Source of the DNA: Escherichia coli
GTDB lineage: Bacteria; Pseudomonadota; Gammaproteobacteria; Enterobacterales; Enterobacteriaceae
NCBI RefSeq assembly: GCF_045037415.1
Contig: NZ_CP173438.1
Strand: one strand, 5' to 3'
DNA: 64,000 nt
Of the stretch, positions 54,077 through 55,291 are shown in pieces (position 1 is the first letter of the stretch; the number at the start of each line of letters is the position of its first letter). The position numbers were made by a program, and so were the translations under genes. The notes beneath the pieces are model-generated. The model worked only from the letters and a program-made list of their open reading frames with translations, did no database searches and had not been told where the DNA came from.

Positions 54077-55291
54077 CTATGATGCCTCCTGAGGGGAAAC
54101 GAATGGCGACACCACGGTCGCCCATGAATAATGCCCGCCCTGAACGCCGCTGAGCGTCAGTTGGGGGTGTTGTGATTGTATTGCCGCCAGCGTTGCCACA
54201 GCGACGGACAGCCACGGCGCAGCCGGTCCGGAGCGCCCCAGAAAGGCATCCAGCTCGTACATCAGGGCTTCCTGAGCAAACGGCTGGTTCAGGCTTAACA
54301 ACGCGGCACGCTGTTCCCTGTCCAGTTCGGCAGTCCACATACCGGATATGGCATCTGGCTGCACCGGCATCCAGTCCAGCGCCTGTGCAATGCCTGACGC
54401 CATCATCTCTGTATCAGTGATACATTCAGGACGATGCAGCAGGGCCAGCGGCGTCAGCGCGGTTTGCGTCAACCGGTTTGCCAGCAACAGCGCGGTGGCG
54501 GATTCTGCCGTCCGTTCCGGGTTCTTCGGTTCCAGACGCACGGAAATCACCAGCAGTACGGCCTTTTCCTGAATGTGGTTGTCCAGCCAGTCGTCCACGG
54601 CGGCCAGCCCCGGCTCCGGGGCTGAAAACAGACGGGCTTCCGGGAGTCCGGCTTTTTGCCATTCGTCCTGCCAGATAGTTCTCACGGAGGCCCCTGAAAG
54701 CGGCGCATCAATTTCCAGTAGTACGTTGATATGAAAATCATCGGGTAGCCGCGTCAGTTGCAGCCTGATATCGCTGAACAGACGGGAAAAAACTTCGGAT
54801 AGACGTCCGGTAACCGGTTTATTGGTTAATACAGGGATGACGCTGCGACGCACAGTATCTTCTCCGCGCAAGTCAGCGTAGGTATTCAACACCTGCTGAC
54901 GTGCCAGAAATGCTGTTATAGTTTCTGCAACGGAATCACCATTCAGCGCGGTTTGTACGGAAAAACTGAGTATCTGCAACGCCCGTCGTCCCCGGCGCGT
55001 TTCCTGCAAAATCACCTCTTCCCGGCGCTTATTCCAGGCATCAGTCCGAATGTACTGCGTGATAAAAAACAGCCAGCGAACTGAAGCAACCAGTGACCAG
55101 ATAAAGGCAGGCACACCACAGGCCAGCCCCCAGAAATACGGGCCGTTTTTTGCCAGTTCATCGCTGGCGAATAATGAAGTCAGGGCCACACCGACAGACA
55201 GCATCAGTAATAAAGCTGTCAGCCACTTAATTCGGGCTGGCGGTACGGGATAGGGTTCTGCGTCGGGAATGGTATTAAGTCGGACTGGCAT
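54077..55291 (-). CDS. Hypothetical inner-membrane protein (two N-terminal TM segments), T6SS-associated by position
   Basis: 404-aa ORF immediately upstream of tssM; no family recognised. Confidence 0.35.
   Translation of the reverse strand: MPVRLNTIPDAEPYPVPPARIKWLTALLLMLSVGVALTSLFASDELAKNGPYFWGLACGVPAFIWSLVASVRWLFFITQYIRTDAWNKRREEVILQETRRGRRALQILSFSVQTALNGDSVAETITAFLARQQVLNTYADLRGEDTVRRSVIPVLTNKPVTGRLSEVFSRLFSDIRLQLTRLPDDFHINVLLEIDAPLSGASVRTIWQDEWQKAGLPEARLFSAPEPGLAAVDDWLDNHIQEKAVLLVISVRLEPKNPERTAESATALLLANRLTQTALTPLALLHRPECITDTEMMASGIAQALDWMPVQPDAISGMWTAELDREQRAALLSLNQPFAQEALMYELDAFLGRSGPAAPWLSVAVATLAAIQSQHPQLTLSGVQGGHYSWATVVSPFVSPQEAS

Follow-up and report, generated by a model that had tools for sequence, protein, structure and literature searches.

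The locus for a type VI secretion system (T6SS) that is carried by a 64,000-nucleotide stretch of Escherichia coli DNA (contig NZ_CP173438.1; hereafter the window) contains, directly upstream of tssM, a gene for a 404-residue protein (WP_001145241.1, here given the working name X404) that we show to be a conserved, T6SS-i1-specific inner-membrane protein with a cytoplasmic domain remotely homologous to the adaptor Tla3. X404 belongs to a large superfamily of membrane-tethered T6SS accessory proteins placed where the cargo meets the membrane complex, and its gene is exchanged as one unit with the VgrG C-terminus, the cargo genes, any PAAR gene that is present and the stretch encoding the TssM transmembrane (TM) hairpin. 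The reading that we prefer, although tentatively and with the balance falling slightly short of even, is that X404 is a membrane-tethered, Tla3-like adaptor for spike or cargo that docks at TssM.

The X404 gene lies on the minus strand at 54077-55291, starts with ATG and is annotated in RefSeq for the identical protein, under the label 'hypothetical protein' or, in newer records, 'KPHS_23130 family T6SS system protein'. The open reading frame (ORF) is a genuine gene rather than a chance occurrence, since full-length homologues occur in 546 clusters and the pairwise ratio of non-synonymous to synonymous substitution (dN/dS) among X404-family genes is about 0.1-0.3. These clusters (50% identity) were recovered at E ≤1e-3 by a profile search of 1.84 billion representatives, and their members, nearly all 380-430 residues long, match end to end. 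An earlier note on this DNA had described a 404-residue membrane protein immediately upstream of tssM, with two N-terminal TM helices, a soluble domain of roughly 300 residues and a topology unlike that of TssL, and had proposed topology prediction, profile and structure-based homology searches and analysis of co-occurrence with tssM as checks. The description agrees with the exact ORF and RefSeq entry given above and, as regards architecture, with hydropathy and both AlphaFold2 (AF2) models, which place helices at about residues 20-43 (55163-55234, minus strand) and 50-77 (of which about 52-77 correspond to 55061-55138, minus strand) ahead of a folded domain of about 300 residues; the N-terminal position of the TM pair and the lack of a match to DotU bear out the distinction from TssL.

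Both TM helices are kept across the family, as is an N-terminal peptide, MPVxLxxIP. The second helix runs on into a basic cytoplasmic stalk with the conserved motif W86-x3-R90 ... R102-R103. Over 78 diverse relatives the mean number of lysine plus arginine residues is 2.7 in the N-terminal tail, 0.8 in the 7.5-residue loop and 4.1 in the 23 residues past the second helix; with basic residues flanking the hairpin and few in its loop, the topology prediction gives two TM helices with both termini cytoplasmic.

The cytoplasmic domain (about residues 102-399; 54095-54988, minus strand, delimited by AF2 and conservation) is modelled (predicted local distance difference test, pLDDT, 94) as a ketosynthase/thiolase fold. 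Its conserved motifs are DxWLD (233-237, with D233, W235 and D237 individually conserved), E263, H286-R287-P288, W307, W319, G352 and W360, every residue named being likewise conserved individually. In the 78-member alignment Cys reaches at most 22% of a column, and that in one TM column, H286 is the sole conserved His, and no column holds Ser or Asn at 50% or above; the catalytic Cys with His-His or His-Asn of ketosynthase and thiolase enzymes is not found in X404. As there is no conserved Cys nucleophile, the domain is a pseudoenzyme, i.e. a catalytically dead ketosynthase/thiolase fold, and an active ketosynthase was rejected because Cys is conserved nowhere. A paralogue of the TssM N-terminal region (TM hairpin plus P-loop NTPase-like domain) was likewise considered and rejected on fold.

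Kinship with Tla3 was found through the sequence profile of the family. Searched against PDB sequences, the 78-member profile matched Tla3 (8yz3_A) at E 4.6e-6 (28 bits), the single match below E 0.1, aligning X404 residues 278-392 (54116-54460, minus strand) with Tla3 residues 298-427; the motifs LHRP and LGxxGxAxP(W/F) are common to the two segments. The same profile gave no match to ketosynthase sequences in PDB even at E 10. Of the homology checks proposed earlier, those against existing model libraries returned nothing for X404 itself, be it in Pfam (no match even at E 10, including DUF2875, Tla3_C, ketoacyl-synthase and DotU), NCBIfam release 20.0 or PADLOC, and single-sequence phmmer against PDB gave chance matches only (E 0.15 or worse); weak Pfam Tla3_C matches were present in 2 of the 78 family members (best E 0.038), and it was the family profile that succeeded. 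The predicted three-dimensional fold of X404 is the same as that of Tla3. A first AF2 model (22 sequences, pLDDT 71) ranked Tla3 top, whereas the better model did not, and we have accordingly downgraded the proposition that Tla3 is the closest structure: many ketosynthase-fold structures, Tla3 among them, are equally close, and Tla3 alone was found by sequence too.

Linkage to tssM was assessed in 80 loci from different species, 75 of which extend at least 600 nucleotides downstream of the gene. In 57 of these 75, tssM begins within a few bases of the X404-type stop codon, in three further loci a PAAR gene sits between the two, and about 14 loci have no tssM nearby; co-occurrence with tssM, which the earlier note proposed to analyse, is seen in most loci. 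In Enterobacterales the tssM start codon typically overlaps the X404-type stop by 4 nt or 1 nt, and in Pseudomonas it lies about 9 nt past it. The probable true tssM start of the window is a GTG (54075-54077, minus strand) that overlaps the X404 TAG stop by 1 nt (TAGTG) and is preceded, at a distance of 7 nt and within the 3' end of the X404 gene, by a perfect Shine-Dalgarno sequence, AGGAGG (54085-54090, minus strand). Starting there would prepend the basic N-tail VVPGLNRLRPRSVSGPAIV to the annotated Met, ahead of the first TM helix of TssM, and the RefSeq ATG start at 54020 is probably mis-annotated, 19 codons too short. The overlap and the perfect AGGAGG make translational coupling of X404 to tssM likely.

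Comparison of E. coli alleles shows that the two genes are also exchanged together, at least in part. E. coli T6SS-1 loci hold at least four X404-family members, mutually about 20-25% identical and each with its own cargo; the tssM type of the window is present at ≥90% identity in approximately 1,298 complete E. coli genomes. The Nissle 1917 locus reads vgrG, tli3, tle3, PAAR, a 477-residue hypothetical protein and tssM, and this 477-residue protein (found in 96 genomes) matches X404 over its full length (22% identity, E 8e-13 with the family profile) and has an extra C-terminal TM pair. Strain PA45B carries a Tle4-like lipase, Tli4, PAAR and a 378-residue family member (E 1e-27), and the Sci-1-type locus of enteroaggregative E. 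coli (EAEC) tle1, three copies of tli1, PAAR and a 382-residue member (E 1.8e-18) that overlaps tssM by 8 nt. As EC042_4537 is PAAR (PMC10715212), the EAEC member should be EC042_4538, a tag of which our literature search found no mention. DNA identity between ST131-type and Nissle-type loci is 93-96%, ends at about vgrG codon 560 (window position ~57361) and returns at about tssM codon 97 (~53732). At the protein level, the 837-residue VgrG (56545-59058, minus strand), inside which the module boundary falls, is 96-100% identical to Nissle VgrG up to about residue 550 and 20-58% thereafter, and TssM residues 1 to ~100, the TM1-TM2 hairpin, are 18-22% identical between the two types against 82-100% for the remainder. 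Between the break in vgrG and the return in tssM lies what is swapped as a block, namely the C-terminal part of VgrG, the cargo, the X404 gene and the TssM hairpin.

Three tandem vgrG modules occupy window positions 56545-64000 and beyond (19746-34020 of the locus in its own numbering, L001), with cargo comprising an M23 peptidase and a hypothetical protein; DUF4123, DUF3304 and Tle1; and SLT and a hypothetical protein. The 5' parts of vgrG are near-identical repeats (63105-63998 and 57361-59037 are both ~93% identical to Nissle vgrG) and are ready substrates for module shuffling. Between X404 and the 837-residue VgrG lie, both on the minus strand, a 200-residue SLT-domain lytic transglycosylase (55921-56523), the candidate cargo effector of this VgrG, and a 149-residue hypothetical protein (55369-55818), a candidate immunity protein for it on position only. 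The neighbouring cargo varies: it includes SLT transglycosylase in E. coli, a BTH_I2691-family effector in Erwinia and, in Pseudomonas, proteins of about 900 residues that are M23-type towards the N-terminus and end in a pesticin or GH19 domain. Seven such Pseudomonas islands were seen (L039 6419-9223, L042 5953-8727, L055 5400-8147, L067 6129-8762, L080 5736-8480, L071 2363-5050 and L057 6278-9157); their proteins have in common an N-terminal region of about 680 residues with M23-like HxxxD and HxH motifs, read by eye, and alternate at the C-terminus between pesticin-lysozyme and GH19 domains, identified with Pfam on the alignment, whilst an NCBIfam scan of them gave no match. These N- and C-termini mark them as cargo, and their identification as Tle3 was rejected. 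Tle3 (DUF3274) itself neighbours just the distant 477-residue E. coli paralogue, the window having SLT in that place.

In the approximately 14 loci with no tssM nearby, the X404-type gene ends a vgrG-effector-immunity island, sometimes followed by PAAR. Eleven of these orphan copies are full-length, with orphan-orphan dN/dS of 0.21-0.25. Among 15 copies that lack an adjacent full-length tssM, five retain a short tssM 5' remnant and ten have none. Several genomes contain two or three X404-type copies, and a PAAR gene lies within 700 nt upstream of the X404-type gene in 28 of 83 loci and downstream in five of the 83. In 11 Photorhabdus and Pseudomonas loci (L002, L003, L036, L038, L051, L052, L058, L066, L072, L075 and L079) the X404-like gene and a full-length tssM terminate the T6SS region; no tssA or tssF was detected after the pair, and unrelated genes follow in L002 and L003, loci with called genes. 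P. fluorescens PS833 has both a pair-only locus (L058) and a complete one (L043). Auxiliary vgrG islands may therefore carry a second tssM.

According to the mechanism that we put forward for an adaptor, the X404 TM hairpin would be placed beside the TM1-TM2 hairpin of TssM, its co-translated and co-inherited neighbour, the pseudo-ketosynthase domain would bind the VgrG C-terminal region of its own module and/or PAAR and/or the cargo effector, and X404 would either deliver the loaded spike to the membrane complex or permit assembly on it. Such a role is plausible in light of two precedents, Tla3, which bridges Tle3 and VgrG2b (PMC6560169), and the thiolase-like PA0098/TvpD, a predicted PAAR chaperone (PMC13373197). 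A bolder version, which we regard as rather doubtful, would make the superfamily a new class of T6SS adaptor, a TssM-docked 'spike receptor' that holds the compatibility of module and membrane complex within one recombination unit; here the pseudo-ketosynthase domain would be specific for a given set of VgrG C-terminus, PAAR or cargo, and the TM hairpin would find its partner in a TM1-TM2 hairpin of TssM that matches it. If true, this would account for the location of module boundaries within vgrG and within tssM, and would add an overlooked component (in the EC042_4538 position) to the best-studied T6SS model.

The principal rival is that X404 is a dedicated partner of TssM, i.e. an i1-type accessory or assembly factor of the membrane complex that would help the TssM TM hairpin to insert, oligomerise or stay stable, with no part in recognising cargo or spike. 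Several observations point this way: the adjacency to tssM in 57 of 75 loci with its conserved stop/start overlap, the way in which the gene varies among E. coli alleles in step with TssM residues 1 to ~97, the occurrence of a family member upstream of tssM irrespective of the cargo, and the tssM 5' remnants of some orphans, which may be decaying duplicates. The direct binding of Tle1 to VgrG in EAEC speaks against a classical effector adaptor. Nevertheless, the ten orphan copies of 15 without a tssM remnant are for the most part intact and under purifying selection, genomes hold several divergent copies, each placed in a vgrG island, as is the pattern for adaptors but not for core subunits, and an adaptor is the one relative by sequence whose structure has been solved. 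The assembly of the EAEC TssJLM complex from tssJ, tssL and tssM alone counts further against a dedicated partner, which we consider unlikely. The suggestion in the earlier note that the gene takes the position of tssL or of a TssM-associated protein stands as regards adjacency to tssM, but X404 is not a TssL-like core part and the canonical tssL is elsewhere; its idea of a membrane-complex accessory component amounts in essence to this rival and is upheld in part, in that X404 is a T6SS accessory protein linked to tssM, although a Tla3-type adaptor is preferred.

A post-translational checkpoint or regulator with a TagF-like role, one that would prevent TssM or the baseplate from acting before a loaded spike has bound, overlaps heavily with the adaptor explanation and is inseparable from it in silico. 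A membrane tether beside TssM joined to a protein-binding pseudoenzyme domain would suit a sensor, and no fha, ppkA/pppA or tagF is listed in the annotated regions of the locus types examined; there is no direct evidence for a checkpoint, however, and similarity to TagF or Fha is absent, leaving this an improbable account. We give far less credence to an active ketosynthase/thiolase-type enzyme acting on a membrane lipid or acyl substrate, against which stand the 22% maximum for Cys, the lack of a Ser or Asn column of at least 50% and the absence of matches to ketosynthases or to the Pfam ketoacyl-synthase model. Equally remote is the notion of an immunity protein or a membrane-targeted toxin partner of the adjacent effector, to which the place of the gene at the end of an effector-immunity island might be taken to point: the large domain is predicted to be cytoplasmic whereas the neighbouring effectors (SLT, M23/lysozyme, Tle lipases) are periplasmic, one clade accompanies unrelated toxins, and separate small immunity candidates are present. 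The immunity reading was rejected on this predicted topology and the variety of neighbouring cargo.

In the strain from which the window derives, the function of X404 is moot, as tssM is destroyed by ISEc12 (IS21 family; 49870-52450, minus strand, with istA at 50716-52257 and istB at 49955-50704), which is flanked by a 5-bp duplication, GCAGT, at 49865-49869 and 52451-52455. The minus-strand tssM 5' fragment consists of the TM1-TM2 hairpin and linker (53733-54077), non-homologous between ST131-type and Nissle-type loci, and the start of the cytoplasmic domain (52451-53732), the DNA of which is 95.6% identical to Nissle tssM; the 3' fragment is at 48102-49869 on the same strand. Insertion of ISEc12 in tssM is a single event that marks ST131 clade C/H30 (PMC10711316), and the window very likely comes from this lineage. 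Its T6SS is presumably dead, the X404 gene nonetheless being intact. The window, which is 100% identical over the query to many ST131-type E. coli genomes, carries a T6SS-1 (i1) locus whose RefSeq minus-strand genes are tssH, three vgrG modules, the hypothetical protein, tssM, tssA, a PAAR toxin, tssF, tssG, tssJ, tssE and a VasL/TagA-like gene; the upstream part of the locus contains tssB, tssC, tssK, tssL, an OmpA-family (TagL-like) gene and hcp, the canonical short-form tssL being annotated between tssK and the OmpA-family gene. Elsewhere in the window, guanine-cytosine (GC) content falls to 35% at 44001-46000, over the C-terminal part of a 472-residue PAAR protein and the small ORFs after it, as is typical of a swapped toxin/immunity tip. 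A block of 40-46% GC at 32000-38000, set in sequence of 50-54% GC, adjoins the VasL end of the T6SS island and contains five same-strand ORFs (33385-38671), of which RefSeq annotates the last three as MalY/PatB, KpsF/GutQ and phosphoglycerate dehydrogenase.

X404 is present in 995 complete E. coli genomes, and its AFDB50 neighbours extend to Burkholderia, Paraburkholderia and Cupriavidus and bear the labels 'Uncharacterized protein' or 'Type VI secretion protein'. Assignment to the KPHS_23130 family of the NCBI pipeline is by name, which recent RefSeq records also give to WP_001145250.1 (94% identical to X404). In K. pneumoniae HS11286 the gene order is PAAR (KPHS_23120), KPHS_23130, tssM (KPHS_23140) (PMC6580597), and KPHS_23130, a VFDB gene of the HS11286 T6SS, otherwise appears in the literature solely in a virulence-gene list. 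Literature searches (KPHS_23130, EC042_4536-4538, DUF2875/Tla3 and T6SS thiolase) found no functional study of the X404 gene, and the papers found attach no function, fold or homology to KPHS_23130. A database name for the family exists; the recognition of its kinship to Tla3 and of its place in a recombining module appears to be new. A very common E. coli allele (P0007; 393 residues, at least 1000 contigs) is without the 11 residues ATALLLANRLT (columns ~274-284 of alignment A1), a deletion that takes out a motif ranking among the family's most conserved and may represent a non-functional in-frame variant. Fusion proteins (P0040, P0041, P0043, P0056 and P0057) join the N-terminal 40-80% of X404 to TssA-C (PF16989), TssF (PF05947) or TssG (PF06996), and in E. 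coli E24377A the final 153 nt of the X404 gene alone remain, adjoining tssJ; together these look like recurrent deletions eroding T6SS-1 from the X404 gene onward.

A family member occupies the junction of cargo and tssM in T6SS-1 (i1) loci of E. coli, Klebsiella, Yersinia, Enterobacter, Photorhabdus, Pseudomonas and some Burkholderiales, the carriers including the EAEC Sci-1 model system, and the family has no Pfam model; one could be built from alignment A2, and the X404-type gene can serve to mark the distal edge of vgrG cargo islands. If X404 does link loaded spikes to the membrane complex, it would fill a gap in how i1 spike-cargo modules are chosen and docked, would explain the recombination boundaries of effector modules, and would be the third case in which a ketosynthase-like pseudoenzyme has been co-opted as an accessory protein of a T6SS.

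Among known systems, the closest comparison is with Tla3 (PA0259; tandem DUF2875/Pfam Tla3_C, PDB 8yz3), which acts in the cytoplasm as the adaptor for loading Tle3 onto VgrG2b in the H2-T6SS of P. aeruginosa. Unlike the soluble Tla3, X404 has an N-terminal two-helix membrane anchor and the MPVxLxxIP peptide, fails the Pfam DUF2875 and Tla3_C models, is likely coupled to tssM and has cargo other than Tle3; binding of Tla3 to both effector and VgrG is established experimentally (PMC6560169). From ketosynthase, chain-length-factor and thiolase enzymes X404 differs in its lack of a nucleophilic Cys and of a sequence match, in its membrane anchor and in its T6SS context. Like TssL (DotU), X404 is a T6SS protein of the inner membrane, has a cytoplasmic domain and is encoded, as tssL is in many subtypes, just upstream of tssM, but TssL is anchored once, at its C-terminus, and adopts the helical DotU fold, and X404 has no sequence or fold similarity to it; X404 as a substitute for TssL was rejected given the canonical tssL in the same locus, the absence of a DotU match and the opposite topology. 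TvpD (PA0098; PRK06147, 'thiolase-like'), a predicted PAAR chaperone of class II Tvp systems (PMC13373197), is by description soluble, has DUF2169/DUF6484 partners, for which no gene is annotated in the X404 locus, and has no link to tssM. Nevertheless, TvpD resembles X404 in being a thiolase-like pseudoenzyme encoded in a vgrG-PAAR island, where it has been proposed to protect PAAR while the spike assembles (PMC13373197, PMC7970981), and X404-family genes, too, often adjoin PAAR.
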